Below, in pieces: positions 6,120-39,947 of a stretch of DNA of 64,000 bases; the first letter of the stretch is position 1, and each line of letters begins with the position of its first letter. The notes under the pieces are model-generated. The model saw only the letters and a program-made list of their open reading frames with translations. It did not search any database and was not told where the DNA came from. The stretch is from assembly GCA_964583975.1 (NCBI GenBank), contig CAZOXU010000001.1:35552-99551 (forward strand), read 5' to 3'. The DNA comes from an uncultured Planctomycetales bacterium. GTDB taxonomy: Bacteria > Omnitrophota > Gorgyraeia > Zapsychrales > Fredricksoniimonadaceae. Made by a program: the position numbers and the translations under genes.

Positions 6120-6121
6120 AA

Positions 6122-19958: not shown

Positions 19959-20003
19959 TGTAAAAACCTCCTAAGTACTATTATTCACTTCCGTTGATAA
20001 AAA

Positions 20004-20370
20004 TAAACAAGTCAATAAGCCGAGTTTTGTGATCCCCACGTCTTGCTGTCGCAAGACAGCTGTGGGGACGATGACCATTTGACTAACTTTCACGCTTACG
20101 CATGAACATCTTGCAGCCTACCCGAGAATACAAGCGAGCCGGATTGCTCTCTTCTCCTATTTGGCATTGCTCCATGCAGAGATTGCTCGTTTCACTCCCA
20201 TTTAAGGGCATCGTCACTGTAGCTCTCCAGCCAAAGGCTGGTCCGCTTTTGGCGGAAATCCTCATCTATCTGACGATAGACGGTCTCGCATTATCGAGAT
20301 GCATTATCCTTTGGAGCTCGGACTTTCCTCCCCGATACCTTTAGTACCAGGGTGGCCATCCTGACTTGTT
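20004..20370 (-). ncRNA. rnpB: RNase P RNA (bacterial type A), ~367 nt. The 5' ~67 nt overlap the 3' end of the rnhA ORF.
   Basis: The minus-strand transcript reads GGGGAGGAAAGUCCGAGCUCCAAAGG (P4 5' strand, near identical to the universal GGAAAGUCCGGGCUCC), and a P3 hairpin CCCUGGUAC-UAAAG-GUAUCGGGG sits just 5' of it. It carries a GCCAAAUAGG motif and a P18-like hairpin GCUGUC-UUGC-GACAGC inside an outer GUCCCCAC/GUGGGGA stem. The P4 3' strand is CUCGGCUUAU. The 5' AACAAGUCAG pairs with the 3' UUGACUUGUU as P1/P2, followed by a U-tract. Confidence 0.7.
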
Positions 20371-20756
20371 TTTAAACCCTGACAAGCAAGTTTATCAGCC
20401 TCTTTATTTTGTTCCCGAGGCACATGCTTAAACTCTACTTGTCTAAAACCTTCGATTAATTTCTTAACTTCTTCAAAGAGCGGTCGGATATTCTCATGCT
20501 TTACTTTGTAATTACCCATAATCTGTTCGTACATCAACTGACTATCGGTCCTGACTAAAACTTCATCGGCTTTTAATTTTAAGGCTTCCTGCAACCCGCA
20601 AATTAATGCCGTATATTCTGCAATGTTATTGGTAGCCAACCCAATGCTCTGGGAAATTTCTTTAACGATCTGTTGTTGATTCCTGATAACCACACCGATG
20701 GCAGCAGGACCAGGATTACCAGAACAAGCCCCATCCGTATATATTTCTAGTCTCAT
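20304..20756 (-). CDS. rnhA: Ribonuclease HI
   Basis: MRLEIYTDGACSGNPGPAAIGVVI and catalytic D/E/D residues; 150 aa. The C-terminal ~23 codons are co-linear with the rnpB 5' region. Confidence 0.85.
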   Translation of the reverse strand: MRLEIYTDGACSGNPGPAAIGVVIRNQQQIVKEISQSIGLATNNIAEYTALICGLQEALKLKADEVLVRTDSQLMYEQIMGNYKVKHENIRPLFEEVKKLIEGFRQVEFKHVPREQNKEADKLACQGLKTSQDGHPGTKGIGEESPSSKG

Positions 20757-21490: not shown

Positions 21491-21564
21491 TGGACTCAGT
21501 AGGACTTGAACCTACGGCCTTCGCCATGTGAGGGCGACGCTCTAACCAGCTGAGCTATGAGTCC
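21491..21564 (-). tRNA. tRNA-Val (anticodon CAC)
   Basis: Reverse-complement GGACUCAUAGCUCAGCUGGUUAGAGCGUCGCCCUCACAUGGCGAAGGCCGUAGGUUCAAGUCCUACUGAGUCCA. It folds as a cloverleaf with anticodon loop CUCACAU; no encoded CCA. Confidence 0.85.
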
Positions 21565-21578
21565 GTTACCACATTAAG

Positions 21579-21652
<74 letters not shown>

Positions 21653-21747: not shown

Positions 21748-22440
21748 TTACTTTTCCATTTTTTCTAAAGCTGAGACGGCTTCGGGGCCTAGATTGGTAA
21801 ATTGGACTCTAATGCGGTATGTTTTTCCAGCTACAATGTCTTCACAATCTAAAACTTCCCCTTCAATGGCCGTAATTTGGGGATAAGAAAAAGGAAATTG
21901 GATATTAAAAACAAGTACGGTTCCTGCTGGATAAGGCTCCAAAGAAAAAAACTTTAACCCTCCGCGACTTATATCCTGAAACCAAGCTAAAGTATGTATG
22001 CCATCTTGTTTGTCTTTCAAATAAAAAAGAGCCATGAATTTCTGTTCAATACGCACATGGGCCCGCTGTTCGGGTGGCGGAGTCTTTTCTAAATTGTAGC
22101 GCTCCATTTGCTCCAAGGCAGCAGTTGCTTCAGGAGACAATTGTATAAACTTAACTCCTATCTTATGCACATTATTGGGAACGACCTTTTGCACATTGAC
22201 CACTTCGCCTTCCATAGCCACTTCGCCATCATAAGGAAAATTGACGATGAGACTAAATATGGTGCCGTTTGGGTAGGAATCGAGTGCAAAGAAACTTAAA
22301 CCGCCTTTGGAAATGTCTGATAATTTAGATATATCAAAAACTTTCTGAGGGCTATTTTTAAGCGCAAACTTGACAACAAATGATTTTCGAAAACGCGTAT
22401 GAATACGATTATCTTTCATAAGATATCTTTTACCACGCAT
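21748..22440 (-). CDS. Tandem PilZ-domain protein (c-di-GMP receptor)
   Basis: Two repeats, each with RxxxR (RFRKSF, RIEQKF) and D-x-S-x-GG (DISKGGLSFF, DISRGGLKFF) motifs. Confidence 0.7.
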   Translation of the reverse strand: MRGKRYLMKDNRIHTRFRKSFVVKFALKNSPQKVFDISKLSDISKGGLSFFALDSYPNGTIFSLIVNFPYDGEVAMEGEVVNVQKVVPNNVHKIGVKFIQLSPEATAALEQMERYNLEKTPPPEQRAHVRIEQKFMALFYLKDKQDGIHTLAWFQDISRGGLKFFSLEPYPAGTVLVFNIQFPFSYPQITAIEGEVLDCEDIVAGKTYRIRVQFTNLGPEAVSALEKMEK

Positions 22441-22478: not shown

Positions 22479-25400
22479 TTAGATCTTCGCCACTTGCTCA
22501 AATGAGCGAGTATCTTCTAATCCTAAGATAGGTAGGACACTGTTAAGAGGAGTAATACGAAGAATAACGGGGATAACGCCTGAAAAATCTCCTTTTTGAA
22601 ATTCTGCAACCATCGCTGGATTTCCGCCAAAGGCGGACCAGCCTCTGGCTGGAAACTTCACTGCAACACCTTGAGCATCTTTAGTGATATCCAGCCCCAT
22701 ATTCTTAGCGTTTAAGTCAATACCACCTTTTGCAGCCACTTGAGCTGGATCTTCGCGCTCTGCTGTATCATCAACCCTTTTGAATTCAACCATCGCTGCA
22801 TCTGAAGCATTTAAACTAATTTCTGAGGAAACCCTATTAGAGAAAAACTCTCCGGTAAAGCCAAATCCAAATAACATGTCAGGAAAACGAGCCTTAAGGA
22901 ATGCTTTTAATGTTTCATTCAATGCTGTCCTCACCTTTATGAACTGATCGTGATCAATCAAAGACACCCCATCCCCATCTGATCGCTCTTCTTGTGAAGA
23001 ACCCGCACGCACTAAATTAGTAATATTAATTTCAAGACCAAGGACACTATTGCTGACTTCCAAATCTTTAGCTTCGATCCCCAGATCCAATCTGGTGTTC
23101 AAATCAACCAGAATCTTATACTTGTATTTTTCAATTCCTATCTTTAACGCTTCTTGTTCCTTTGCAATCTGTTCCTTTATTTGATCTTTTGAAATTTGAT
23201 CTAATAGCCTGCTCAAGAATCTTGGATCACTACCTTCTAAAACCCAAGGGTGAGATCTTTCAAAAATTCGAACAAGCCTCCATGCTTCTTTGTACCGGCC
23301 GGCTGCTTTCAAAGACTCAAAATCTATTTCTAATTTCTTTAAAAGTCTTCGTTGTTTTGACTCCAGATGAACATTTAATTCCAATAAAACATCTTCCTCA
23401 TCCATATACAACAGAGGATTTTGTTCTTTAAATCTAATGATTAAATCTTCAGCTCCTTTGAAATCGTCCCTCTCTACAAATTCTCTAACATTCGAATTCA
23501 GCACCCTCAAAGATTCTTTCCTTTCAGATTCTTCTTTAGGAAAATCTGCTTTGCGATGTGCCAAAATAATTTGTTGAGCAATAATTACTCTTTGCGCATT
23601 CGTTGTTGGACCATACTGTTTTTCTTCCTCGATGACGCGCATTTTCCACTCATCAAAAAGACTAGAAAAAACGACTTGCGGATTATTTTTAAGATATTGA
23701 TCATCATCTAACGGAAGCTGATCATCAAACCTTCCCTGTCTCATTTCAATAAGAAATCCATTAAAATAAAACAACTCATCTTCATCTTTAACAGAGAAGC
23801 CTTTGACAATCCTATCCCTATCTTGATCAAAAATATCTCTGCGTTTCTTTTGTATAAATCTCTCCCCAGCGCTAATCATGTTCTCTTTAACGAAGTTTTT
23901 AGTTCCAATTTGGATTTGACGCCTTAATATGTCAACTCTCCAGGCCCAATAAAAAATGGATGAATAATAATCTTCAACTGGCAACTGAAAACTATTTTTC
24001 TCTTCTAATCTCATACTTTGACTATTCAATGGCCACCCACTCTTCACAGCAATTAAAAACATATAAAAATGATACAAGGCTTCTCGCTCATCATAGATCG
24101 TTGGATCTGGCTCTAACAATTTTTTATTTCGTTCTAAAATAGCATTAATGACCTGATTAAATCGCTCTGGCGTAGCTTCATCTGCAAGCCCTTCTACTTC
24201 ATCAATCATTTGAACTGTTTCTTTAGATGGATCCCTATCAAACGCTTTCCTAAAATTCACCTGTGTTTGACCTTCCTTATATTCTTCAAAATTGGTTGAT
24301 ATCATCCACTGGACATAATCAATAAAATCTTTAAACGCAAGAAGTTGCGGACTATCCGGGGCAGATGCATTCATCGCTGCATCAGAAAACTTTTCAGCAG
24401 CTTTGGCATCAACAACATAGGTTACATTAGAATGAGCCTGCAAATAGGAGGCTGAGCTTTCAGGTGAGATTGAACCTGTTACAGATTGATATACAGCCTC
24501 AGCTTTCTTATCTCCGGTGGCTGCAATCATAACTTCTTGAGCGTCCATAATGGTTCCAATACCCACACTCAAGGCTTCGACTGGCATCAAAGAAACATCA
24601 TCTTTAAAATACCTACCGTTATCAATGATGGTTTGAATCGCCAAATAGACATGCCTGGTCCGTGAACGGGCAATTTCTTGAGCATTTTCAAACTTAACAT
24701 CATTAGGATTAAGGCCTAGTGATCCAACGGCATCACGAAACACTTGGAGGTTTTGATAATCTTGAGCATCTAAATAAATGACGGTTTTCTGCTTCCTGAT
24801 CTTGCGAGTTAAACGTTCGATAGCTTCAGGTATTTGAGGATTATTGGCCGCAACAAATTTCTCGGTTAAAAACCTAATCAGCTCTACTTCTTCTCTTAAT
24901 TGGGCATGCCTTTGCAAAACTTGCTTAACCTTCTCAACTCCACCTTTAACATAGAACTCATTGAATCCTCTGAGATTTTCAATATTCCCAGCTTCAGCAC
25001 CATTAATCACAATAATCGGTTCATTAAATGCTATATGACGGTCTGTACCAATCCCGCCATAGGCTAGCTCAACGCCACCAGCATCCCTAATAACCTTTTC
25101 ATAACGCTCTACCTCTGCCTCGATATCTGTAGCATTACCATTTAAAAGATGCGCATTTTCTTCCTTCCATCCCAAATCCAATTTCCTCAATTTGCTAAAT
25201 AAATGTGTTTCCATATATTGCCTGTAGCTTTGGGAATTCTTGTCCCACTGCTCAGCTTCAGGCCCTACATAATATTCATCCATGTTAATAGTAATCAAAT
25301 TAGAAAGATCGATTTGTTCAGCTTTGACAATTTCTACAAATAATCTATAAAATTCTTCCTGGGTTCCGCCCGTAGGTAAAATAACTACTGTTTTCTTCTT

Positions 25401-26975
25401 TAAATGATTATTGATCTTAACAATTTCAGCCATACGTCTGGCAAAACGATAACCAACAGATTCAGGCAGGTCATATGTTTCGCCTTTAACTTTACCTACA
25501 TTCCATTTAGATATTTTAAGATGATTGCTTACCTTCCATCTCCTCATTGCTCTGTATAAGGTTAGGTCACCACCTTCAGATTTGCGCTTATTTACTAAAA
25601 TTCCAGAATTATTAGGCACACTATCAATTAATCGTCTTTCTAATTCTCTACTCGTCGATCTCTGTGTGGGATAAAGTTTTGTAGTTGGTAAAGGTATTTC
25701 AAAATCTTGCGCTGCTTTATACAAAGTCTGATCTCCACCATTTTCTATCGTTTCATGAATTAAAAAACTCGCATTATTAGGCAACCCTGCCTTGTCTCTT
25801 TCTGCCAACTTTGCTACCACTGATTCTGGAGTCGGATACTTTATACTCATGGCTCGATCAACCGCCACTGTAGCTATAGCTAAATCACCGACAGCCTCTG
25901 TGCTTTCGCCAGCTTGTAAACTTTGCACCCTTTGAATTAAACGATCAGGGGCGATTTCAAAAAACTTTTCTCCACCAGAGAAATACTTGCGAGCAATAGG
26001 TTGTTTGCTTACCGCATCCATATCTTCCTTTATATAATTAAACACACCTTTTTTATAAGCCTTCAGATACTGCTCATAAATTTTCTCTTTATCTTTTACG
26101 TCATCAGAGAGAACGCCGCCAGTCTTAGCCTTATTGCTGTAAACTTGATTCAAGAGAGCATCTTTCAAAGCTAGCTTGTACCAGGAAGCTAGGATCATAG
26201 AATGAAAAATCTGACGTAAAGGAGCGAAGTTTTTGCCCTCATTAACTTCTTTTTCTATTTCTGGAAGGATGAGATCGCGAACGATTTGATTTGAATCCTG
26301 TGCCCGTACGGCATTCTTATTCATCGCCAAATAATCTTCTTCCAACATCACCTTCAAATGCGAACCAACCACATAGGCTGTATTATTACGTTCTAAAATC
26401 TTAGCCTTATCAGCCATGATCCAAACCTTATTGAAGGTATTAACAGGCACCTCTTTGTCACCATAGAGTTGCTGGGCTTTAGCATAGATTCTGCTCCAAA
26501 ACTCCTTACCCAATTGCTTCTCTGGGTAGATTAACGAGGCAGTTAATTGTTTAAGGATATAATCCTGAGCCAACATATCCCGACCCAGCTCAGTTTTGCC
26601 TAATTCCTCTGGAACGATCCTATCTTTCTCATAGGGAGATAAATTGACCCACAAGTCTGCCTCGGGGATAGTTAAAGCGGCTAGAAAATATTTGATTAAT
26701 TTCTGCGATTCTAATTGTAGGGGCGAGGCGCCTGCCGACGAGGCAGGGATTTGCACAGATAATCCCGAATGACCTGTATCTAGGATAAAATCGAATAACA
26801 ACGGATTCTCAGGATGGACCTTCAGGCCTTTGATCAGCACAGGAGTATAGGTAGAGCTCAAATTTACCATGGTGCCCGGCTCGGGCAAAGGAGTCGAAGC
26901 ATAGCTGCGCTGAGGAGCAATGACCGAAGTAGATATAAAGCTAATAATAAGACATAGGGAAATAATACGTTTCAT
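22479..26975 (-). CDS. Large secreted protein (1498 aa) with an internal glucosamine-6-phosphate deaminase / 6-phosphogluconolactonase (NagB-fold) domain
   Basis: Signal peptide MKRIISLCLIISFISTSVIA. Central region matches NagB/Pgl motifs (VVILPTGGTQEEFYRLFVEIVK, INMDEYYVG, YGGIGTDRHIAFNEP, SVGIGTIMDAQEVMIAATGDKKAEAV). The N- and C-terminal ~450 aa each carry no motif I recognise. Confidence 0.6.
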   Translation of the reverse strand: MKRIISLCLIISFISTSVIAPQRSYASTPLPEPGTMVNLSSTYTPVLIKGLKVHPENPLLFDFILDTGHSGLSVQIPASSAGASPLQLESQKLIKYFLAALTIPEADLWVNLSPYEKDRIVPEELGKTELGRDMLAQDYILKQLTASLIYPEKQLGKEFWSRIYAKAQQLYGDKEVPVNTFNKVWIMADKAKILERNNTAYVVGSHLKVMLEEDYLAMNKNAVRAQDSNQIVRDLILPEIEKEVNEGKNFAPLRQIFHSMILASWYKLALKDALLNQVYSNKAKTGGVLSDDVKDKEKIYEQYLKAYKKGVFNYIKEDMDAVSKQPIARKYFSGGEKFFEIAPDRLIQRVQSLQAGESTEAVGDLAIATVAVDRAMSIKYPTPESVVAKLAERDKAGLPNNASFLIHETIENGGDQTLYKAAQDFEIPLPTTKLYPTQRSTSRELERRLIDSVPNNSGILVNKRKSEGGDLTLYRAMRRWKVSNHLKISKWNVGKVKGETYDLPESVGYRFARRMAEIVKINNHLKKKTVVILPTGGTQEEFYRLFVEIVKAEQIDLSNLITINMDEYYVGPEAEQWDKNSQSYRQYMETHLFSKLRKLDLGWKEENAHLLNGNATDIEAEVERYEKVIRDAGGVELAYGGIGTDRHIAFNEPIIVINGAEAGNIENLRGFNEFYVKGGVEKVKQVLQRHAQLREEVELIRFLTEKFVAANNPQIPEAIERLTRKIRKQKTVIYLDAQDYQNLQVFRDAVGSLGLNPNDVKFENAQEIARSRTRHVYLAIQTIIDNGRYFKDDVSLMPVEALSVGIGTIMDAQEVMIAATGDKKAEAVYQSVTGSISPESSASYLQAHSNVTYVVDAKAAEKFSDAAMNASAPDSPQLLAFKDFIDYVQWMISTNFEEYKEGQTQVNFRKAFDRDPSKETVQMIDEVEGLADEATPERFNQVINAILERNKKLLEPDPTIYDEREALYHFYMFLIAVKSGWPLNSQSMRLEEKNSFQLPVEDYYSSIFYWAWRVDILRRQIQIGTKNFVKENMISAGERFIQKKRRDIFDQDRDRIVKGFSVKDEDELFYFNGFLIEMRQGRFDDQLPLDDDQYLKNNPQVVFSSLFDEWKMRVIEEEKQYGPTTNAQRVIIAQQIILAHRKADFPKEESERKESLRVLNSNVREFVERDDFKGAEDLIIRFKEQNPLLYMDEEDVLLELNVHLESKQRRLLKKLEIDFESLKAAGRYKEAWRLVRIFERSHPWVLEGSDPRFLSRLLDQISKDQIKEQIAKEQEALKIGIEKYKYKILVDLNTRLDLGIEAKDLEVSNSVLGLEINITNLVRAGSSQEERSDGDGVSLIDHDQFIKVRTALNETLKAFLKARFPDMLFGFGFTGEFFSNRVSSEISLNASDAAMVEFKRVDDTAEREDPAQVAAKGGIDLNAKNMGLDITKDAQGVAVKFPARGWSAFGGNPAMVAEFQKGDFSGVIPVILRITPLNSVLPILGLEDTRSFEQVAKI

Positions 26976-29690: not shown

Positions 29691-31388
29691 ATGAAACCCC
29701 GATCTACCGCCCTATTAGGCCAACTATTAGTTGATAATAAAATTATCACTTCTGAGCAGCTTGAAATTGCCCTCAAGAAACAAAAAGAAACTGGCGATCC
29801 TTTAGGCATTACCCTCTTAAAGCTCGGATTTGTTGATGAAGAAAACTATGTGCTTCCCATTGTAGCCAACCAAATGGGAGTTTCCTATGTTAATCTCAAC
29901 CAGATGGAAATAGCCAAGGAAGTTATCAATAAAATCCCAGCCAAGATTGCCATTTACTACAAATTAATCCCCATTGACTATAGTGATGGGATTTTAACAA
30001 TAGCCACGACCAAACCTTTAGATATTAACATCATTGATGGCGTTAGTTTGGTTGTCAGCGACAAAATCAGAACTGTGCTGGCTAGCGAGAAAGAAGTTAT
30101 CGAAAATATCCGCACCTACTACGGAGTCGGAGCAGAAACCATCGACCAAATGATGGAAACTGCCCAAATTAAACCAACCCCCGAAAAAGAAGAAGATATT
30201 GCGGAAATTGACTCTGAAGCCACCATTGCTAAATTCTTAAATCAAGTTTTTATTGAAGCCTATGAGAGCCGGGCTACTGATATTCATATTGAACCCTATG
30301 AAAATGAATTAAAAATCCGTTACCGTATTGATGGCGTTTTATCTGACACGCAACTGCCAGCCAACATCAATCACTTTCGCGATTTCATCAATGCCCGTAT
30401 TAAAATTATGTCGAATCTTAATATTGCTGAAAAACGCCTTCCCCAAGATGGCCGATTTAAAGTCAAAATAGGTGATATTAATTTGGATTTACGTGTATCT
30501 TTTTTGCCAACCCAATTTGGAGAAAGCGTTGTTATTCGTTTATTGCGTTCTTCTTCCCTTTATAACCTCAAAGATTTAGGTTTATCCCCTGAAGATCTCA
30601 AAAGGTTGGATGGTTTACTTAGCAAACCCCATGGTATCATTTTTGTTACCGGCCCAACTGGTTCAGGAAAAACGACCACTTTGTATGCTTGCCTTTCCCA
30701 TATCAATAAAGCCGATAATAAAATTATTACGATCGAAGATCCTATTGAATACCAGCTCAAAGGCATTATGCAAATTCAAATCCATCCTGAAATAGGATTA
30801 ACATTTGCACGAGGGTTACGATCCATGTTACGTCACGATCCCGATGTCATGATGGTTGGCGAAGTCCGTGATGTGGAAACAGCCCGGACGGCCGTACAAA
30901 TAGCCATGACTGGTCACTTGATTTTCTCAACCCTGCACACGAATGATGCTGCCAGTGGTGTGACCCGCCTCATTGATATGGGTATTGATCCTTACTTAGT
31001 CACCAGTTCGGTAGAATGTTTTATTGCTCAACGTTTGGTCCGCCTATTGTGCCCTAAATGTAAAACCCCTGGAAAATTCTCTGAAGATGTTGTTAAAGAT
31101 TTTGGATTAGATCCTCAAATCGAAAGAAACATTACGATCTATGAAGGCACCGGCTGCAAGGCCTGTAATTTTAGCGGTTATTATGGCCGAGAAGGAATTT
31201 ATGAATTTTTAGTTCTAAATGATGAAATACGAGAAATGATCATGCATCGCTCCTCTTCAACCCAAATTAAGAATAAAGCTACCTCTTTAGGAATGACTAC
31301 TCTTCTTCAATCTGGATGGGAAAAGGTTAAACTGGGGTTAACCTCGGCTAGTGAAGTGATTCGTGTAACGAAAGAAGATTATAAATAA
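29691..31388 (+). CDS. gspE: Type II secretion / type IV pilus assembly ATPase (GspE/PilB family) with an N-terminal MshEN-like domain
   Basis: Walker A GPTGSGKTT, Asp box, His box and tetracysteine CPKC...CKAC. The N-terminus carries two ~24-aa MshEN-type repeats (LLGQLLVDNKIITSEQLEIALKKQ and LGITLLKLGFVDEENYVLPIVANQ). Confidence 0.9.
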   Translation: MKPRSTALLGQLLVDNKIITSEQLEIALKKQKETGDPLGITLLKLGFVDEENYVLPIVANQMGVSYVNLNQMEIAKEVINKIPAKIAIYYKLIPIDYSDGILTIATTKPLDINIIDGVSLVVSDKIRTVLASEKEVIENIRTYYGVGAETIDQMMETAQIKPTPEKEEDIAEIDSEATIAKFLNQVFIEAYESRATDIHIEPYENELKIRYRIDGVLSDTQLPANINHFRDFINARIKIMSNLNIAEKRLPQDGRFKVKIGDINLDLRVSFLPTQFGESVVIRLLRSSSLYNLKDLGLSPEDLKRLDGLLSKPHGIIFVTGPTGSGKTTTLYACLSHINKADNKIITIEDPIEYQLKGIMQIQIHPEIGLTFARGLRSMLRHDPDVMMVGEVRDVETARTAVQIAMTGHLIFSTLHTNDAASGVTRLIDMGIDPYLVTSSVECFIAQRLVRLLCPKCKTPGKFSEDVVKDFGLDPQIERNITIYEGTGCKACNFSGYYGREGIYEFLVLNDEIREMIMHRSSSTQIKNKATSLGMTTLLQSGWEKVKLGLTSASEVIRVTKEDYK

Positions 31389-32599
31389 TGCCTCTTTTTT
31401 CTTATACAGCTAAGCAAGGACCCAAAAAAACTGTCCAAGGACAGATAGAGGCAGAAAGTGTAGACACAGCCATTCGAAAGATTATGGAATTGGGATATAC
31501 GCCTATTGATGTCTCTAAACAAAACCCAACAAAAACACCTCGTTTTGAGTTTATCTTAAACCAAAAAATCCCAAACAAAGAAATCATCTTATTTACACGA
31601 CAATTAAGCGATCTCATTGAAGCTGACGTGCCTCTTTTAAAATCCTTAAATCATATCTTCAAACAAACTAAGCATCCTATATTTAAGGCTATGCTTCAAA
31701 AGATATGTACGGCGGTTAAAGACGGATCCATGCTTTCTGAATCTTTAGAAAAATTCCCAGAAACATTTCCAACAGTATACGTTAACATCATTCGATCAGG
31801 AGAATTTAGCGGTAATCTTACTGCTGTTTTGCAACGTCTAGCAGATTTTAGTGAGCGGCAACAAGACATTCAAAACCAAATCAGGGCCAGCTTGATTTAT
31901 CCTGCCTTAATTCTGAGTGTCGGAGCAGCTACCATTTTTGTCTTACTCACTTGGGTTATTCCTCGTCTAACAGCTATCTTTGAAGATCTGAATCAAGCCT
32001 TACCCTTGCCAACTCAAATTTTATTAGCCACTAGTGACTTCTTTGTACATTTCTGGTGGCTCATTGTATTTATTCTGGCTACTCTAGGATTTGCTTTGCA
32101 GCAATTGAATCGCACACCCGCAGGAAAATTGAAAATAGATCGATTTAAACTCCAAGTTCCTTTTTTAGGCAATTTCTTGAAAAATGTGGAGATTGAACGT
32201 TTCAGCCGCACCTTAGCGACATTGTTAGAAAATGGCGTTACGATTATTTCTGCTTTAAAAGCAGTGGCACTGGTTACTGAAAACCAAATCTTTAAAGATG
32301 TGATCAAAAAAATTGAATCAGATGTCAGCAATGGAGAAAGTTTGGCCAAGGCTATTGAAAAAACCACATTATTTCCTGAGACAGCTACTCAAATGATTAC
32401 GGTTGGTGAAGAAACTGGTCACATGACTAAAGGACTCCATAAGCTTGCCCAATACTATGAACGATTGATTCAGAATTTTATAAAGAGTATGACCACCTTA
32501 ATCGAACCCATTTTGATACTTGTATTAGGAACGGTTGTTGGTTCGGTTGTTTTAGCTATGCTATTACCTATTTTCCAAATGAATTTATTGATCAAATAA
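31388..32599 (+). CDS. gspF: Type II secretion system inner-membrane platform protein (GspF/PilC family)
   Basis: Duplicated T2SF domains, 3 TM helices, 403 aa. Confidence 0.85.
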   Translation: MPLFSYTAKQGPKKTVQGQIEAESVDTAIRKIMELGYTPIDVSKQNPTKTPRFEFILNQKIPNKEIILFTRQLSDLIEADVPLLKSLNHIFKQTKHPIFKAMLQKICTAVKDGSMLSESLEKFPETFPTVYVNIIRSGEFSGNLTAVLQRLADFSERQQDIQNQIRASLIYPALILSVGAATIFVLLTWVIPRLTAIFEDLNQALPLPTQILLATSDFFVHFWWLIVFILATLGFALQQLNRTPAGKLKIDRFKLQVPFLGNFLKNVEIERFSRTLATLLENGVTIISALKAVALVTENQIFKDVIKKIESDVSNGESLAKAIEKTTLFPETATQMITVGEETGHMTKGLHKLAQYYERLIQNFIKSMTTLIEPILILVLGTVVGSVVLAMLLPIFQMNLLIK

Positions 32600-32621
32600 T
32601 AACAAAATTCGGAGGCATTCA

Positions 32622-33065
32622 ATGTCACAATCAAACAAAGGCTTTACGCTCGTTGAAATTCTTTTAGTGGTCATCATTATTGGTATTCTAGCAGCCATGA
32701 TTATCCCTAATATTGCTGGACGCGGTGAAGAAGCCAGACGTGGTGCAGCTAAGGCAGATATCATGGCTAATCTTTCCTCGGCCTTAGATATGTACGAAGT
32801 TGATAATGGCCGGTACCCAACCACTGAGCAAGGACTGGCTGCTTTATTGAGCGAACCCAGCACCTCTCCTACGCCTACTCACTGGAGAGGACCTTACCTC
32901 AAAAAGAAAAAACTTCCTATTGATCCTTGGGGTAAGAATTACATTTATGTCTGTCCTGGTGTACGCAACCCTGATAGCTACGACCTGTCTTCTTCCGGTG
33001 CTGATAAAATTGAAAGCCCTGATGATATCGTCAACTGGGAAGACAATTCTTCGATCCAAAAATAA
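32622..33065 (+). CDS. gspG: Major pseudopilin GspG
   Basis: Prepilin leader KGFTLVEIL with E+5, plus the GspG hallmarks AKADI...LDMYEVDNGRYPTTEQGL...W.GPY. Confidence 0.85.
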   Translation: MSQSNKGFTLVEILLVVIIIGILAAMIIPNIAGRGEEARRGAAKADIMANLSSALDMYEVDNGRYPTTEQGLAALLSEPSTSPTPTHWRGPYLKKKKLPIDPWGKNYIYVCPGVRNPDSYDLSSSGADKIESPDDIVNWEDNSSIQK

Positions 33066-33508
33066 TGAAAGCTTTTACCTTAACGGAGATGCTCTTAATT
33101 GTGGTGCTGCTTACCGTAGCAGCAGGTTTGTCGCTTCCCAATTTTAGTAAATCTTACACAAAGCTACAATTAGACACTTCTGTTACGACACTCACTCATA
33201 TGATGCGTTATGCGCAAAGCAGGGCCATTACTCAAAACAAGAAAATACGACTTTTATTTAATGATCCCACTGAGAAATACCAATTGTTTGAAGAAAAAGA
33301 AGAACAATATGTACCTTTAAACGGTCGCTGGGGAAAAGTTGTTAGTTTTCCTAAAGGCATTACTGTAAAACCCCTTCACCTATCTATAGATTTTTTCCCA
33401 CGAGGTGAAATTGAAAAAACCGACGTACAAATCTGTCAGGATAAAGATTGTGCTATTGTTACAACTCAACAACAGCGCTCGCAAATAGAGGTTTTATATG
33501 CCAATTAA
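33065..33508 (+). CDS. Minor pseudopilin, GspH/FimT-like
   Basis: Prepilin-type N-terminus MKAFTLTEMLLIVVLL; 147 aa. Confidence 0.55.
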   Translation: MKAFTLTEMLLIVVLLTVAAGLSLPNFSKSYTKLQLDTSVTTLTHMMRYAQSRAITQNKKIRLLFNDPTEKYQLFEEKEEQYVPLNGRWGKVVSFPKGITVKPLHLSIDFFPRGEIEKTDVQICQDKDCAIVTTQQQRSQIEVLYAN

Positions 33509-33914
33509 AACGATCCCTCACAACCAAGGAGCTTTGTTGCTAGAAGTCTTGATGGTGATGGTCATTCTTGCGGTTGGATTAACATGTATTATTCAATCTC
33601 TTTCTTCTAGCATGAAAGCATTAAACTATGCCAGTAATTATTCCCAGGCCGCCTTTCTAATTGATAACAAACTATCTGAAATACTTATTAATCAATCTAT
33701 CGAAGAAAATTTCCAAGACAGCGGCAACTTCAATCCTCCTTTTGAGGCTTATCATTTTCAAATTTCGACTGAACCGATGAAATGGACTGATGATCCATCG
33801 CCTTCCGAAACAGTCAGCCAAATTCGACTTAGTGTCGATTGGCCCGTTGGCACTAAAAATCAAGAGATTTCTACAGCCCTCTGTTTACTCCATGCAACGG
33901 AGGATAAAAATTGA
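33498..33914 (+). CDS. Minor pseudopilin, GspI-like
   Basis: Prepilin-type hydrophobic N-terminus QGALLLEVLMVMVILAV with E+5; 138 aa. Confidence 0.5.
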   Translation: MPIKTIPHNQGALLLEVLMVMVILAVGLTCIIQSLSSSMKALNYASNYSQAAFLIDNKLSEILINQSIEENFQDSGNFNPPFEAYHFQISTEPMKWTDDPSPSETVSQIRLSVDWPVGTKNQEISTALCLLHATEDKN

Positions 33915-34684
33915 TCATGAAAATAAAATCAAATATGGCTTTTACTCTGATTGAGTTCTTAATTGCGTTTGCTATTTTCTCAACCATTGCTTTGAGTGTT
34001 TATGGCACTTTCTACAGCGGTATGCAAATAAACAAGAAAGCCAAGAATTTTGAACTCTTCTATCGCAATATCTACTGGTCTTTTGATCTTATACAGCGCG
34101 ATCTAGAAAATATGGTCGCTTTTAACGATGCCGATAAGAGTCTGAAGGCATTTTCAGGCAATGCTGATGGGTTTTCCCTAGTCATCCCTACAAATTCAGG
34201 ACTCAAAAAAGTCAGTTACCGATTATCCGAACCAAATAAAATTCAAGTACATAAAACCCAACTAGGATATCACACCTCAAAAAACGTTCCCATAACTACC
34301 GGTCACATTCAAAATGAGGATCAAATTAATTATCTTGTCCGACAAGAACAAAGTTGGGGTCAAATCAGCCCTGAAGATGAGATCCTTAACAAACAAGTGC
34401 TCAACAATTCTTTAAAAATTTCTTATGCGAGCGCTGATAAAGAAACAGTCCTCTGGCATGAGGAATGGACCGATGATGGTTTTCCTGTTGGAGTACGCTT
34501 GGAAATGACTTTTATAGATCCAGACAACCCTAAACATTCCGTAGTGATTCGCAAGATTATTCCTATTTCTTTGAGAACAAATAATACTAATCCTGTATTA
34601 AATCAAAATCCTTTGTTTGATCTGAATAATTTATTAAACCAAAATACTAATCCTTTAGGAAATTTACTAAAAATTAACCAATGA
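33911..34684 (+). CDS. Minor pseudopilin, GspJ-like
   Basis: N-terminus MAFTLIEFLIAFAIF; 257 aa. Confidence 0.5.
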   Translation: MIMKIKSNMAFTLIEFLIAFAIFSTIALSVYGTFYSGMQINKKAKNFELFYRNIYWSFDLIQRDLENMVAFNDADKSLKAFSGNADGFSLVIPTNSGLKKVSYRLSEPNKIQVHKTQLGYHTSKNVPITTGHIQNEDQINYLVRQEQSWGQISPEDEILNKQVLNNSLKISYASADKETVLWHEEWTDDGFPVGVRLEMTFIDPDNPKHSVVIRKIIPISLRTNNTNPVLNQNPLFDLNNLLNQNTNPLGNLLKINQ

Positions 34685-35670
34685 TGCTCAGAACCAAAAA
34701 TAATTCTGGTATAATACTAATTGTTGTCTTGTGGATCATGGTCATTTTGACCTTGCTGACGATCGGCATAGGATGGCAAACCCATATTGAACTTACCCTA
34801 GCTAAGAATTTCAGAGGGAAAGTTCAATCCAAATATATTGCCCTTTCTGGCCTGACCTATGCCATGGATCTTATAAAAAACAGCACAAACAATAAAGACC
34901 TTCACAAACCGGATGTTCTAAATTCGCAAGTTTTTTCAAAAACTATACCCTTAGGAACAGGTTATTTTAAAGTGAAAAGTATCCAAGACGTAGAAAGCCG
35001 AATTAATCTTAATGCTATAGATCCAAATAATTATCGAATTCTAACTAATCTCTTAGAAAAATTAGGCATTGATCGCGAAACCGCTATGACCATCACTTAT
35101 TCTGTTATTGACTGGAAAGATACTGACAAGACTGTTTTGAATCCACCCTATGGAGCAGAAAATGACTTTTATCAAGAGATTGGTTATAACGCCAAAAACC
35201 AACCCTTGGAAAGCGTTGAAGAAATCCTCCTAATTAGAGGAATGAACAAAGATATTTACCAAAAAATAAAAGATTTTATTACAATTTATCCCACTAGTGG
35301 CGCCTTATTAATTAATATAGATACTGCTTCTGAAGAAGTATTACGGGCCTTTGCAGAAAATTTTGCCGGACCTTTAACAAATACAAGTATCGAAGATGCA
35401 AGCAGCCTTGTTGATAAGATTATGGAATACCGAAGAACACTAACAGATACAAGTACGACTGCCCAAGAACGGGCTGTTGAAACTAATAAAATGAGCCTCA
35501 ATTCTAAAGAAAATAGTATTTTCCTTACCATGCAGTCTCAAAGACAAAGAACTTCTCAATATTTTAATATTCAAGTTGTAGGGGTTGATGAAGAATCTCA
35601 GGCCTCAACAGAAATTTCAACTACTATTCAAATCAAAGATTTGGCTGTTCTAAGCTGGCACAGAAATTAA
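34681..35670 (+). CDS. Minor pseudopilin GspK-like
   Basis: Hydrophobic N-terminus without E+5, a large ~330 aa size, and the VESRINLNA motif typical of GspK. Confidence 0.55.
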   Translation: MMLRTKNNSGIILIVVLWIMVILTLLTIGIGWQTHIELTLAKNFRGKVQSKYIALSGLTYAMDLIKNSTNNKDLHKPDVLNSQVFSKTIPLGTGYFKVKSIQDVESRINLNAIDPNNYRILTNLLEKLGIDRETAMTITYSVIDWKDTDKTVLNPPYGAENDFYQEIGYNAKNQPLESVEEILLIRGMNKDIYQKIKDFITIYPTSGALLINIDTASEEVLRAFAENFAGPLTNTSIEDASSLVDKIMEYRRTLTDTSTTAQERAVETNKMSLNSKENSIFLTMQSQRQRTSQYFNIQVVGVDEESQASTEISTTIQIKDLAVLSWHRN

Positions 35671-35671
35671 T

Positions 35672-37096
35672 ATGATTAAAGATAATCGCACTATCATTGA
35701 AATCACAAGTACCTATATCAAGGTGTTACAGGTATCGGTCCAACGCAATAATCCCATCCTTAGTAATCTAGAAATCATTGAAACTAAAAAACATACTGAA
35801 CCACAAATCATTGAGAAACTTTCTCGCTTAAATCTTAAAACTAAAAACACCCTTCTGGTATTACCTAAACGTAATGTAATTTTAAAAAACTTCTCCCTTC
35901 CATCCCAAAACGAAGATGAAATTAAAAAAATATTATCTCTTAAAATCCTTCAGGAAATTCCTTTCAGCCAGGAAGAAATTGTCTTTGATCACCTCATTGT
36001 TGATAAATTATCTGATGGATACACCAAGGTTCTTGCAGCTATTAGTCCCTTGGATCAGATTTCAACCAATCTTAAAATATTAAAAAAAGCGGGCTTAAAT
36101 GTTACAAGCGTACTGATTAATTCTTTTGGTATTATTGGATGGTTTCGCCAACTCTTACCCCAAGAAAAGAAACCCATTAGCATTCTAAACCTTGATTGTG
36201 ATGGTGCTGAACTATGTTTTTGCGCGCAAGGGAAATTCCTGTTTTCGCGCAATTTTAATTTTAACCTTAATGATTTAAATGATCAAAATATTGCTGACAT
36301 TCTCAACCAAATAGAATTAACTCACAAAGCCTATCAAAATGAATTCCCCAAACTTAATATAGAGAAAATCTTTATTGCTTCTGACATATTCCAAATTGAA
36401 ACATTGAAAAAAAGTATCCTTGATCACTTTAATCTGCCTGTTGAGGTTATTAAGCCCTCTGAACGAATCACCTGCGAATTACAGGCCCTCTCCTTAATCA
36501 AAAATAATCCAATGATTTCTATTACAGGTAGCTGGGGATTTGTTGTTGCTGCTGGAGACCATCAAATTGATCTGATGCCACGCTCTCTTAAAATCGAAGA
36601 ACAAACGCCTTTAACTATAAATCGATTTCTTCCCTTTTTGCTGTCTGCCAGCATACTACTAGTCTTAATTGTTATTGCTTCTTCCATGGGGATTTATCAA
36701 AAATATTTGCACCTTGAACGACTGCAAAAAACCTATTCAAGCATTCAAGAGACAACAAAAACTGGAAATACAAAACTTAACGATATACGCATATTTCGTC
36801 ATTTACTTGATCAACACCTGCCCATGGCCGATGTATTACGTGATATTTATCTAAAAACACCTGCGGGAATTACATTTCGCTTTATTAACTTTAATAGAGA
36901 TTATTCTTTCACCATTGATGGCGTAGGTCCTTCGCAAGAAGCTATTAAAGACTTTCAACAAAGGCTTACGGATTTACCTTGGTTTAAGGATGTAAATATT
37001 GAATTTAGTAACCCTAGGCAATATAACAAACAAGAACTATTTGATTACAGAATAGCTTGTCAGATTATTGGGCCTGAAGAATTTAAAAAACAATGA
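35672..37096 (+). CDS. GspL-like assembly protein (cytoplasmic PilM/actin-like domain + TM + periplasmic PilN-like domain)
   Basis: A ~310-aa cytoplasmic domain, a single TM (FLPFLLSASILLVLIVIASSMGIY) and a ~150-aa periplasmic tail. Confidence 0.55.
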   Translation: MIKDNRTIIEITSTYIKVLQVSVQRNNPILSNLEIIETKKHTEPQIIEKLSRLNLKTKNTLLVLPKRNVILKNFSLPSQNEDEIKKILSLKILQEIPFSQEEIVFDHLIVDKLSDGYTKVLAAISPLDQISTNLKILKKAGLNVTSVLINSFGIIGWFRQLLPQEKKPISILNLDCDGAELCFCAQGKFLFSRNFNFNLNDLNDQNIADILNQIELTHKAYQNEFPKLNIEKIFIASDIFQIETLKKSILDHFNLPVEVIKPSERITCELQALSLIKNNPMISITGSWGFVVAAGDHQIDLMPRSLKIEEQTPLTINRFLPFLLSASILLVLIVIASSMGIYQKYLHLERLQKTYSSIQETTKTGNTKLNDIRIFRHLLDQHLPMADVLRDIYLKTPAGITFRFINFNRDYSFTIDGVGPSQEAIKDFQQRLTDLPWFKDVNIEFSNPRQYNKQELFDYRIACQIIGPEEFKKQ

Positions 37097-37641
37097 AAAA
37101 AATCCACGCTCCTAACATCATTTCGACCAATAAAGAAAAACGCATCTTTATTTTAGGCTGTCTATTACTCATTACGTTTTTTATCTACCGGGGGGTCTAT
37201 TTACCGTTGATGAATGCCAAAGAATCCTTGGAAGAGAAAGTCTTATTATTTGAAAACCAGATCTATAAATCAAATCGCGTCATCTCCCAAGTGGAACCAT
37301 TTCAAAAAGAATATTTGGAAGCTACCAAATGCTATAAACAGGCCCTTTCTGACAAACAAGAATTGTCGAATATATCTTCAGAACTACAAAGTATTGCTCA
37401 AAGAACTCAGCTTAAGATAACAGCAGACCTTCCCAAAAAATCTAAAGCCACCCTCTATAAAAACGACTTTACAATTAATCTACTTTTGGAAGGTAATTCT
37501 AAAAATATCCTGGAATTTCTCTATGCCTTGCAAAACTGCCCTCATTTATATAATGTTAATGAATTGAGGATTTTCACGTCTCCATCCAACGACTCCCAGT
37601 TGCAATGCCAGCTGGTTTTGACCAAATCTTTAATTAAATAA
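37093..37641 (+). CDS. GspM/PilO-like bitopic inner-membrane protein
   Basis: N-terminal TM helix plus a ~140-aa periplasmic domain, positioned after the gspL-like gene. Confidence 0.45.
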   Translation: MKKIHAPNIISTNKEKRIFILGCLLLITFFIYRGVYLPLMNAKESLEEKVLLFENQIYKSNRVISQVEPFQKEYLEATKCYKQALSDKQELSNISSELQSIAQRTQLKITADLPKKSKATLYKNDFTINLLLEGNSKNILEFLYALQNCPHLYNVNELRIFTSPSNDSQLQCQLVLTKSLIK

Positions 37642-37725
37642 ACTATTCTTAGATCTAGATTAATAGAAAGCGTATTATCCGATTGACACTAGTTTTTATT
37701 TATGTCAAATTAGGTCTACTAAACC

Positions 37726-38241
37726 ATGTTTCAATTTAGATTACCCTTATTCAATAGCAGCAATATATTTGATTCCCTAACCAAGGTTCTTGCGTTAGTT
37801 TCCGTTTTACTATTTATATATATACTAGCTAGATTCTTTGCTATCAATAAAGAAATGGCAACGTTAAACCCAAATTCTATGACTACGACAGCTTCTATCG
37901 ATTCTAAAAATAAAATTCTACCGTCTTTCCCTCCTTTTACTCAATATGCCCAAGCTGTGGAAGGACAAAACTTTTTCCAAACACCTAAAATAGTCGTAGC
38001 AGAAGCTACCCCCGAAGTCCCTAAGGAACCTACACCTCAAGATTTAACTAAAAACATTAAAGTGCTTGGGATTATGTTATCTCAAAAGCCTCAGGCCGTT
38101 GTGCTCAACCAGACTACTAACCAAACACTTATTCTGTCGTTAGGGGACACTATCAACAATTTAAGACTAAGCGAAATCCAAAAAGACCAAATAATTTTTG
38201 ACCATGATGGACAGTTGTTAAAAGTCCATTACACCAAATAA
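37726..38241 (+). CDS. PilP/GspC-like secretin-interacting protein
   Basis: N-terminal TM, a Pro/Thr-rich linker and a C-terminal beta domain (VLGIMLSQKPQAVVLN...LKVHY), immediately upstream of the secretin. Confidence 0.4.
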   Translation: MFQFRLPLFNSSNIFDSLTKVLALVSVLLFIYILARFFAINKEMATLNPNSMTTTASIDSKNKILPSFPPFTQYAQAVEGQNFFQTPKIVVAEATPEVPKEPTPQDLTKNIKVLGIMLSQKPQAVVLNQTTNQTLILSLGDTINNLRLSEIQKDQIIFDHDGQLLKVHYTK

Positions 38242-39947
38242 TGACACGACATAAATTTATATTATTGATAACTATATTAATCCTAAGCGGACCTATAGTT
38301 CCTTGCTTAGCCCAAGGAAAGAATCAATCCCAAAAGGATTTACTTATCGAAAAGACCCTTGATGCCTTTACTCCTCCCAATATCTATCAGGAGACTGTCT
38401 CGGATAATGAGTCTTCCATTTCACGCTCTAACTCCCAAGAATTATCCTCCACATCTGTTTCGCCTGATCAAGCGGATGCTGACGTCAATGCCGATGGTTC
38501 TCCTGCTGTCAAGAATACCGATGATATTCCCAACGATGAAACTATTGATATGTTGGAATTAAAAGATGTAGATATATCCGATGTACTTAAATTACTTTCC
38601 CAGAAAAGCGGATTAAATATTATTGCTAACCAAAATGTTCAAGGAAAAGTGACAGTCTTCTTAAAAGATGTAAAACTCAAAGATGCTTTAGGTATAGTTT
38701 TAGATTCCAACAACCTGGCGTATAAGGTTGAAGAAGGCATCATTAGAGTTATGCCTGCTCGCGAATTTGAAGATAGATATGGATATAAATTTGGAGGCAA
38801 TGTCAAAAATCTGGCTGTCCATTTAAACTACGCTAATGTCAACGATGTGACTGCTATTTTGATGCAAATAAAAAGTTTCTCAGGAAAAATTCTTGCCGAT
38901 ATTAAATCCAACACCCTGGTCCTCATTGATTCTTCTGAGAAATTAAACATCATGGAGAATTTAATTAAGAAAATTGATGTCCCAGTGCAAACCGAAGTAT
39001 TTGAACTGCTCTATGCTCAAGCTAAGACTGTCTCGGAAAAATTGGCAGAAACCCTCAACAAAGATACTGGTAAGGTCCGTTTTGATGAACGCACCAATAA
39101 AATAGTTGTTACTGACACGCCTTCTAAGATCAAAGAAATTTCTAAACTTATTAAGGCTTTTGATGTTAAAGAAACACAAGTTCTTATTGAAGCTAAAATT
39201 ATTCAAGTGACTTTAGATAAACAAAATCAATTTGGGATTGATTGGGAAGGATTAATCAAGAAACATAGCAATATTGACTTTAAATCTAATTTCAAAGTTA
39301 TACCTGATACAGCACCTAATTCTGGTTCATTACGTATCGGCACCGTCAGTGATAATCAATATGGAATACTTTTGCAAGCCTTGCAAACCTCGACCCACTC
39401 AACCATTCTTTCATCCCCAAGCATTACAGCTTTAAACAATCATGAGGCCAAAATATTGGTGGGTACCACTCAGCCTTATGTGACATCAACAACAACAACG
39501 CCCTCTTCTGGACCAGCTACGACTGCCGAAAGTATTAACTTTATTGATATAGGCGTTAAGCTTTACGTTACACCAACCATTCATCAAGATAATTTTATTA
39601 CAATGAAAATCCGGCCTGAAGTAAGTTCGGCTGGAACTTCCTTAACCACCAGCAACGGCAATAAAATTCCAATTGTAGACACCTCTCAGGCGGAAACTAA
39701 TGTTTCTGTTAAAGATGGGGTGACCATTATCATTGGTGGGCTTATTAAAGACCAATTAATCAAATCATCTAACAGGGTTCCCGTGCTAGGCAATATTCCA
39801 TTGTTAGGTGCAGCATTTCGCAACAGTGATGACCACCCTATTAAATCTGAAATTATCATCTTCCTGACCCCTAAAATTGTGACAGGAGATGTCCCTGTTG
39901 AAGTAAAAACCCGCCAGTATCCTGATAACGATAAAAAATCTAATTAA
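38241..39947 (+). CDS. gspD: Secretin (GspD/PilQ family) outer-membrane channel
   Basis: Signal peptide, N0/N1-type domains and a C-terminal secretin domain (VPVLGNIPLLGAAFRN...IIIFLTPKIV). Confidence 0.85.
   Translation: MTRHKFILLITILILSGPIVPCLAQGKNQSQKDLLIEKTLDAFTPPNIYQETVSDNESSISRSNSQELSSTSVSPDQADADVNADGSPAVKNTDDIPNDETIDMLELKDVDISDVLKLLSQKSGLNIIANQNVQGKVTVFLKDVKLKDALGIVLDSNNLAYKVEEGIIRVMPAREFEDRYGYKFGGNVKNLAVHLNYANVNDVTAILMQIKSFSGKILADIKSNTLVLIDSSEKLNIMENLIKKIDVPVQTEVFELLYAQAKTVSEKLAETLNKDTGKVRFDERTNKIVVTDTPSKIKEISKLIKAFDVKETQVLIEAKIIQVTLDKQNQFGIDWEGLIKKHSNIDFKSNFKVIPDTAPNSGSLRIGTVSDNQYGILLQALQTSTHSTILSSPSITALNNHEAKILVGTTQPYVTSTTTTPSSGPATTAESINFIDIGVKLYVTPTIHQDNFITMKIRPEVSSAGTSLTTSNGNKIPIVDTSQAETNVSVKDGVTIIIGGLIKDQLIKSSNRVPVLGNIPLLGAAFRNSDDHPIKSEIIIFLTPKIVTGDVPVEVKTRQYPDNDKKSN

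Follow-up and report, generated by a model that had tools for sequence, protein, structure and literature searches.

An 11-gene type II secretion-like operon of Candidatus Omnitrophota with Xps gene order and an MshEN-type ATPase N-terminus

[quoted passage not shown] With moderate confidence, we read this operon as encoding a complete outer-membrane-spanning type IV-filament machine of the type II secretion (Xps-like) kind. Eleven co-directional plus-strand open reading frames (ORFs) span 29691-39947 in the ORF listing, the same ends as given in an earlier reading of the letters alone (the sequence-only reading), and are arranged 5' to 3' as E, F, G, H, I, J, K, L, M, N/C and D (Table 1). Their junctions, with overlaps of 1-11 nt or gaps of 1-84 nt, are consistent with a single operon, and a GGAG ribosome-binding site lies 8 nt upstream of its first ATG, that of gene E. 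A divergent aroD flanks the operon on one side and a convergent rpoD-dnaG on the other, with housekeeping genes around. Scans for promoters and terminators were at chance level (35 promoter-like sites vs 33.6 expected; 7 terminator-like sites vs 7.6 expected), and an Rfam scan found no riboswitch for cyclic di-GMP (c-di-GMP) or other regulatory RNA near the operon.

Family assignments were made by Pfam and NCBIfam hidden Markov model (HMM) scans, which gave strong calls for E, F, G, K and D. The single-sequence matches of H, I, J, M and N were weak (H just at the Pfam threshold), and I, J, M and N were tested with orthologue profiles: Omnitrophota orthologues were taken from 80 genome loci, grouped by iterated HMM searches, aligned and compared as profiles with PDB sequences. 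The sequence-only reading had described an 11-gene operon resembling a T2SS or type IV pilus, and each of its component calls was upheld by the HMM, profile-versus-PDB and fold tests, with the refinements given below.

Class III prepilin leader motifs are legible in all five pilin-like proteins (G, H, I, J and K). The major pseudopilin G has the leader KG/FTLVE and a GspG-like C-terminal region (DPWGKNYIYVCPG...YDLSSSGAD). K has the leader SG/IILIV, which is without Glu5, as in GspK. H (leader KA/FTLTE) scored below cutoff on ComGD (56 bits) and on GspH TIGR01708 (33.8 bits), and its position is kept in the orthologous operons. For I (leader QG/ALLLE), the orthologue profile matched the GspI structures 5bw0_B (E 1.3e-3) and 5vtm_V. 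For J (leader MA/FTLIE), which begins with TTG and has an in-frame ATG two codons further downstream, it matched EpsJ (2ret_B, E 3.6e-6; 3cfi_B) and GspJ (3nje_A, 5vtm_W). The leaders together with the GspI, EpsJ and GspK matches speak against the minor pseudopilins being unrelated small membrane proteins, the outcome that the sequence-only reading had set against its own calls. The C-terminal tail of J is of low complexity and rich in N, Q and L (window 34575-34684, J residues ~222-257).

The gene order had been called non-canonical. It does differ from the gspC-O arrangement, but it is not unusual: it equals the known xps order of Xanthomonas, XpsE, F, G, H, I, J, K, L, M, C (formerly N) and D, a system whose GspO is encoded outside the cluster and which has no pilotin (PMC11981180). 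The two sets share the same 11 genes in the same order, with the ATPase first, the secretin last and a GspC-type HR protein directly before the secretin; G and K belong to the same families. In both, the cluster holds no prepilin peptidase gene, and a pilotin is lacking. Neither a prepilin peptidase (Peptidase_A24) nor PilT was found in a Pfam scan of 56 of the 57 non-nested window ORFs of at least 100 residues (the one left out is 18714-19199 on the minus strand, 161 residues), which bears out the earlier statement that the window encodes no prepilin peptidase or retraction ATPase. The differences from Xps are that all 11 genes of the Omnitrophota set are packed into one apparent operon, that L and M here match PilM-PilN and PilO whereas XpsL and XpsM are of the GspL/GspM families, and that most other Omnitrophota operons have, between M and C, additional genes for MerR and AAA_22 proteins. 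The N-terminal domain of XpsE resembles the N-terminus of E weakly (2d28/2d27, E 0.03), and the N-terminus of E passes the NCBIfam c-di-GMP-motif model.

L had been described as a GspL-like fusion of an actin fold with a transmembrane segment. The GspL architecture stands: a cytoplasmic actin-like domain (~1-300) is followed by one transmembrane helix (~316-343) and a periplasmic ferredoxin-like PilN domain (~385-470). By sequence and fold, however, L is a PilM-PilN fusion in which both parts are still recognisably PilM and PilN. Its score on Pfam T2SSL was 20.6 bits, under the cutoff of 25.5. A 40-sequence L profile matched M. xanthus PilM (3jc8_Ma, E 7e-34) and PilN (3jc8_Na, E 1.7e-4), and neither GspL nor EpsL was among the matches of this profile to PDB sequences at E<=1. 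In the AlphaFold2 (AF2) model of L (pLDDT 72.7), the top fold matches were to PilM (E ~1e-17), and GspL cytoplasmic domains followed at E ~1e-10. PilM and PilN are joined in a single ORF also in 59 L orthologues of about 450-550 residues. A word-seeded search for L homologues gave only 6 proteins because L diverges fast (28% identity where E has 68%), and orthologues derived from the loci were used instead. The best PDB match of the orthologue profile of M, a bitopic protein, was M. xanthus PilO (3jc8_Oa, E 9e-5). PilM:PilN is the established counterpart of GspL (PMC4471445), and a fused PilM-PilN protein is a useful datum on the origin of GspL.

The gene before the secretin had been left as PilP/GspC-like. 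Of the two, GspC is the better match: the orthologue profile of N matched GspC HR domains (3oss_C, E 1.1e-6; OutC 6hcg_e; 2lnv_A), and longer N orthologues matched GspC models only. A transmembrane helix lies at the N-terminus of N, which has no PDZ domain. In the secretin D, a signal peptide and ~100 residues of low complexity precede an N0/STN domain, which is followed by two copies of Secretin_N and then by the secretin domain; no AMIN domain was found in D by Pfam scan. The S/D/N-rich stretch between signal peptide and N0 (~75-100 residues; window 38310-38540, residues ~25-100) occupies the place of the AMIN domain of PilQ.

The ATPase E has the Walker A sequence GPTGSGKTT and a tetracysteine Zn site (CPKC...CKAC). 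Its scores on GspE TIGR02533 (577.8 bits, cutoff 630) and PilB TIGR02538 (573.4 bits) were nearly equal and both below cutoff, and its best PDB sequence match was Geobacter PilB (478 bits; EpsE core, 390 bits). The platform protein F scored higher on GspF TIGR02120 (391 bits, cutoff 424) than on PilC models (323 bits).

The operon is conserved across Omnitrophota as a self-contained module of 11-13 genes. The closest homologues of E (60-93% identity) come from Candidatus Omnitrophota metagenome-assembled genomes, and the best 80 genome loci are all from Omnitrophota or similarly binned genomes of this kind. Gene order was judged only in those loci, from other Omnitrophota species, that extend 11.5 kb or more downstream from E (n=45). 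The identical order E-F-G-H-I-J-K-L-M-N-D was observed in 24 of these 45; most of the others are without one small pseudopilin call or end at the edge of the locus. Of other families, one alone is conserved together with the operon: an AAA_22 ATPase (271-291 residues), whose gene 33 of the 80 orthologous loci carry between M and N, often after a MerR gene of 80 residues; outside the operon, no neighbour family occurred in more than 6 of the 80. Its best NCBIfam match, below cutoff, is TIGR03015 (PEP-CTERM-associated ATPase), and we take it to resemble ExeA/GspA and MshM. This extra gene of ~275 residues was considered as the missing prepilin peptidase and rejected, since it is the AAA_22 ATPase. 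Examples of the AAA_22/MerR arrangement are found in loci L004, L008, L016, L021 and L028 (L028:12076-12888; L029:17998-18237), and neither the window nor its nearest relatives have the pair (L002, L003, L007, L012, L015, L024 and L039). When rpoD, dnaG, PilT, PilD and F-type ATPase genes were sought as conserved neighbours in the orthologous loci, the flanks were not kept beyond the closest relative. In nearly all of these 80 loci, E is the only ATPase of its family within +/-10 kb. In L007 (1-9790), a second, divergent paralogous cluster of the order E-F-H-L-M-N-D-I-G lies directly upstream of the canonical operon, and rearranged operons occur in L031, L058, L067 and L077 (L-M-AAA-N-D-E, E-L-M-AAA-N-D, AAA-N-D-E-L-M and E-F-L-M-G-I-K).

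The N-terminus of E, whose assignment the sequence-only reading had staked on the MshEN models, matches both Pfam MshEN (Table 1) and the NCBIfam model NF053729 (c-di-GMP_motif; 56.8 bits vs cutoff 38, E residues 9-52). Two tandem 24-residue motifs had been claimed. Both peptides are present (residues 8-31 and 38-61), but the second was placed one position out of register, and the length of 24 residues fits motif I only: motif I is L8-Q31, the spacer is KETGD (5 residues) and motif II is P37-Q61, of 25 residues. E residues 8-70 were aligned by HMMER with residues 9-70 of V. cholerae MshE (VcMshE; 5htl). In motif I, R9, L10, G11, L25, L29 and Q32 of MshE correspond to L8, L9, G10, L24, L28 and Q31 of E; at the start of motif II, R38, L39, G40 and G47 correspond to P37, L38, G39 and G46, and at its end L54, L58 and Q61 correspond to V54, V58 and Q61. 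Thus L-G at motif positions 2-3, the terminal Q31 and Q61 and the hydrophobic LxxxL and VxxxV positions are kept relative to VcMshE, and the motif-initial Arg is replaced in both motifs, by Leu8 and by Pro37. Motif I fits the extended consensus (R/K/L)LGxxhhxxGhhxxxxLxxxLxxQ save for K at position 10. Motif II has Pro at position 1, a +1 insertion in the alpha3-alpha4 loop and the ending VxxxVxxQ. In the alignment of 62 orthologues, G10, L24, L28, Q31, L38, G39 and G46 are conserved to at least 90%. By a regular-expression count, most orthologues have Pro or Leu at position 1 of motif I, and Leu at that of motif II; this count is ambiguous for the register of motif II, for which the HMMER alignment to 5htl and the 62-sequence alignment were relied on.

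The AF2 model of E residues 1-160 (pLDDT 85.7) shows the MshEN fold, a four-helix N-subdomain with an alpha/beta C-subdomain, and contains helices at 9-15, 21-34, 38-44 and 50-62. Its top fold match was MshE with c-di-GMP (5htl, E 1.7e-11, TM 0.54-0.62), followed by PilF GSPII-B. The subdomain at residues 63-147 gave a weak local fold match to the N1 domain of EpsE in EpsE:EpsL (2bh1_X, TMt 0.67, 65 columns, E 0.29), and is probably where the cytoplasmic domain of L docks.

Binding of c-di-GMP by ATPases of T2SS/T4P-type systems has been known since 2015-2016 (PMC5013675). With the MshEN receptors VcMshE, the P. aeruginosa T2SS ATPase PA14_29490 and PilF GSPII-B/C, E shares two tandem helix-turn-helix motifs spaced 5 residues apart, each of which keeps L-G at positions 2-3 and the Gln at its end, and its predicted N-terminal fold is nearest to c-di-GMP-bound VcMshE. 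It differs in having Leu (motif I) and Pro (motif II) rather than Arg at position 1. Its motif II is one residue longer than that of MshE, where that of GSPII-B is shorter by one, and two contact Leu residues of MshE are Val in E. Position 1 of Thermus PilF GSPII-B is occupied by Lys and Leu, and this domain binds with a dissociation constant (KD) of 6 nM, which K167L changes to 2 nM, so that Leu at this position gives higher affinity; GSPII-C has Pro at position 1 of motif II and binds c-di-GMP at ~500 nM (PMC11731258). Since both Leu and Pro at position 1 are thus seen in proven binders, c-di-GMP binding by E is plausible, and we predict from the motif and fold matches that the E N-terminus is likely to bind it.

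Several observations weigh against this prediction. PilF GSPII-A has an MshEN-like motif and does not bind c-di-GMP even with the consensus restored, and Arg to Ser at position 1 of motif II abolished binding in an engineered construct (PMC12002112). E carries the +1 insertion in motif II. When a 159-residue N-terminal query was used, the best single PilF domain match was the non-binding GSPII-A. The N-terminus might then be a degenerate, structural-only MshEN-like domain, as in GSPII-A and the N-domain of XpsE, with neither c-di-GMP binding nor control at the ATPase; the loss of the canonical Arg from both motifs (L8, P37), the longer motif II and the two Leu-to-Val contact positions would fit such a domain, and GSPII-A shows that motif likeness is insufficient for binding (PMC12002112). 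We regard this as the less likely outcome, one to be taken seriously nonetheless. E scores well above the cutoff of the curated c-di-GMP-motif HMM, a 71-residue query confined to the motif region places the binders GSPII-B and MshE on top, and position 1 is Leu or Pro in some proven binders, Leu raising affinity (PMC11731258). Moreover, the Gly at position 3 and the terminal Gln, the loss of which disables GSPII-A, are kept here and in the clade. The earlier statement that the motifs imply second-messenger control is weakened to a prediction because GSPII-A shows that an MshEN-like motif need not bind; such control of the ATPase would follow if E binds the messenger.

The doubt expressed in the sequence-only reading, whether the operon makes a secretion system or a non-retractile pilus, was justified because the system really is a T2SS/type IVa pilus (T4aP) mosaic: as judged by family and profile matches, G, K, J, I and the GspC HR protein are of T2SS type, and L is PilM-PilN and M PilO-like. 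A T2SS is favoured by G and K, which score above T2SS cutoffs, by the matches of I, J and N to Gsp structures, by the Xps order, by the lack of PilT, PilY1 and an AMIN-type PilQ among the window ORFs and by the lone E-family ATPase of nearly all orthologous loci (+/-10 kb). From these we infer secretion rather than fibre display. A number of results pull the other way. E, F, L, M, N and D all score under the NCBIfam T2SS equivalog cutoffs; L and M are nearer to T4aP PilM, PilN and PilO than to GspL and GspM; the closest PDB matches of the ATPase, both N-terminus and whole protein, are PilB and PilF; and D scores marginally higher on PilQ TIGR02515 (270 bits, cutoff 284) than on GspD TIGR02517 (257 bits, cutoff 351). 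Neither a secretion substrate nor a prepilin peptidase nor a diguanylate cyclase can be made out in the window. A TXSScan-based survey reported T4aP clusters in nearly all Omnitrophota, for which host attachment was argued, and did not report T2SS; its T4aP clusters may include this operon (Seymour et al. 2023; PMC10066038).

These features would suit a non-retractile T4aP-like or MSHA-like pilus, with G as a surface adhesive filament for attachment to host or prey, the extension of which would be gated by c-di-GMP as in V. cholerae MshE. In addition to the pilus-type L, M and D scores and the T4aP clusters of the survey, such a pilus would be in line with the MshEN N-terminus of a PilB/MshE-like ATPase, which is about as near to PilB as to GspE, and with the AAA_22 ATPase encoded between M and N in most orthologous operons, presumably an ExeA/GspA- and MshM-like protein. 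Compared with the T4aP of Myxococcus, Geobacter, Pseudomonas and Thermus (PilB, PilC, PilMNOPQ), the operon shares this type of ATPase N-terminus, the PilM cytoplasmic domain of L (in sequence and fold), its PilN periplasmic domain and the PilO-like M. However, PilM and PilN are separate proteins there and fused here in the GspL architecture, the filament subunits here are of GspG/H/I/J/K types and not a PilA-type major pilin, and the secretin linker is a GspC HR protein, not PilP. G is pseudopilin-sized and exceeds the GspG equivalog cutoff, K is a bona fide GspK, and the gene order equals that of Xps. AMIN domains in D, PilT and a PilY1-like adhesin were not found in the window, the ORF listing giving no PilY1-like ORF in the operon. 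We consider the pilus unlikely. A DNA-uptake (competence) pseudopilus of the Com/HofQ/PilF kind is very improbable: ComGD is the best sub-threshold match of H (56 bits), D also matches HofQ (188 bits) and the closest matches of the E N-terminus include the DNA-uptake ATPase PilF of Thermus, but the Com and HofQ scores are far under their cutoffs and under the Gsp and PilQ scores, no ComEA, ComEC or DprA was seen adjacent in the window, and the T2SS-specific GspK and GspC are present.

The operon also appears to differ from the 'T2SS-like' giant-gene locus of the same phylum (West-Roberts et al. 2023). Common to both are GspD, GspE and GspF homologues, which are conserved phylum-wide. The giant-gene locus is described with RcpC and Rotamase_2 (Tad-like), neither of which occurs here; the operon described here lies between aroD and rpoD-dnaG, without a giant gene.

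For the secretion machine that we favour, a working scheme can be proposed, in which the protein-protein contacts are drawn by analogy with homologous systems. The hexameric ATPase E would dock onto the PilM-like cytoplasmic domain of L by means of the C-terminal half of its own N-terminal domain, and the periplasmic PilN-like domain of L would pair with the PilO/GspM-like M. With the platform F, these proteins would assemble GspG into a short pseudopilus in the periplasm, for which a tip complex of H, I, J and K would serve as primer. Processing of the prepilins would call for a prepilin peptidase whose gene lies elsewhere in the genome. N, the GspC-type HR protein, would join the platform to the N0 domain of the secretin D, through which folded periplasmic proteins would be pushed outward. 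The first 61 residues of E, an MshEN-type four-helix bundle, would probably bind one c-di-GMP and thereby gate assembly or activity. A bolder view would be that the operon represents a vertically inherited, phylum-wide type IV-filament subtype between T4aP and canonical T2SS, with a T4aP-type alignment complex containing fused PilM-PilN, a PilB/MshE-like c-di-GMP motor, a pseudopilus of T2SS type (G, H-I-J-K) and GspC as linker, by which ultra-small, putatively parasitic or predatory Omnitrophota might deliver lytic enzymes to hosts under c-di-GMP control and which was perhaps miscounted as 'T4aP' in surveys; we hold this to be unlikely.

Elsewhere in the window, a protein of 230 residues with two PilZ domains is encoded at 21748-22440 (-), directly downstream of an ORF of 1498 residues at 22479-26975 (-), the only recognisable part of which is a split NagB/glucosamine-6-phosphate deaminase-like domain (~residues 484-867). 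Use of c-di-GMP by the organism is suggested by this di-PilZ protein. In Omnitrophota, pilZ genes have been described as conserved downstream of very large genes (West-Roberts et al. 2023). At 4875-7759 (+), a PEGA-domain protein (414 residues) is followed by a family-2 glycosyltransferase of 545 residues with a weak PgaC-like match; the two are a possible exopolysaccharide synthase pair, and no MshEN domain was detected on the glycosyltransferase within this interval. A bacterial class A RNase P RNA was found at 20000-20372 (-) (135 bits), its 5' end overlapping the 3' end of an RNase H/RVT_3-like ORF at 20304-20756. tRNA-Val(CAC) and tRNA-Met(CAT) are also present in the window; the interval 21491-21652 (-) is listed with the RNase P RNA entry.

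Table 1. Genes of the operon and subdomains of its ATPase, in window coordinates, with the matches on which each assignment is based.
Feature	Length (residues)	Position	Strand	Basis
E, gspE/pilB-type assembly ATPase	565	29691-31388	+	Pfam T2SSE 441 bits
MshEN_N four-helix c-di-GMP-type motif region, E residues 8-61		29712-29873	+	NF053729, alignment, AF2 fold
MshEN C-terminal subdomain, E residues 63-147		29877-30131	+	Pfam MshEN PF05157 43.8 bits (cutoff 23.1)
F, gspF/pilC-type inner-membrane platform	403	31388-32599	+	T2SSF matched twice, 214 bits
G, gspG major pseudopilin	147	32622-33065	+	TIGR01710 145.8 bits (cutoff 88.85); T2SSG domain 106.6 bits
H, gspH-like minor pseudopilin	147	33065-33508	+	Pfam GspH 21.7 bits (cutoff 21)
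I, gspI-like minor pseudopilin	138	33498-33914	+	GspI TIGR01707 32.8 bits (below cutoff); leader
J, gspJ-like minor pseudopilin	257	33911-34684	+	Orthologue profile; leader
K, gspK minor pseudopilin	329	34681-35670	+	NF037980 T2SS_GspK 136.6 bits (cutoff 130); T2SSK_1st 72.6 bits
L, PilM-PilN fusion with GspL architecture	474	35672-37096	+	Pfam PilM_2 54.6 bits and PilN 28.4 bits
M, GspM/PilO-like bitopic platform protein	182	37093-37641	+	Sub-cutoff: PilO 19.4 bits; GspM_XpsM 22.7 bits (cutoff 60)
N/C, GspC-type HR-domain protein	171	37726-38241	+	Sub-cutoff: T2SSC 22.5 bits; GspC_delta 24.1 bits
D, secretin	568	38241-39947	+	Secretin 163 bits; Secretin_N twice; STN; GspD N0

Omnitrophota are uncultivated, mostly ultra-small bacteria with suspected parasitic or predatory lifestyles, and for their interaction with hosts the chief genomic clue comes from their envelope machines. 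MshEN-bearing T2SS/T4P ATPases and the E-to-D gene order have both been described before, and current understanding is not overturned. What is added here is an Xps-ordered, T2SS-like operon conserved in Omnitrophota that combines a T4aP-like platform (fused PilM-PilN, PilO) with an ATPase predicted to sense c-di-GMP. Its T2SS-type pseudopilins help to set a probable secretion system apart from the pili reported for Omnitrophota, and residues 1-150 of E provide a concrete target for the question of c-di-GMP control.

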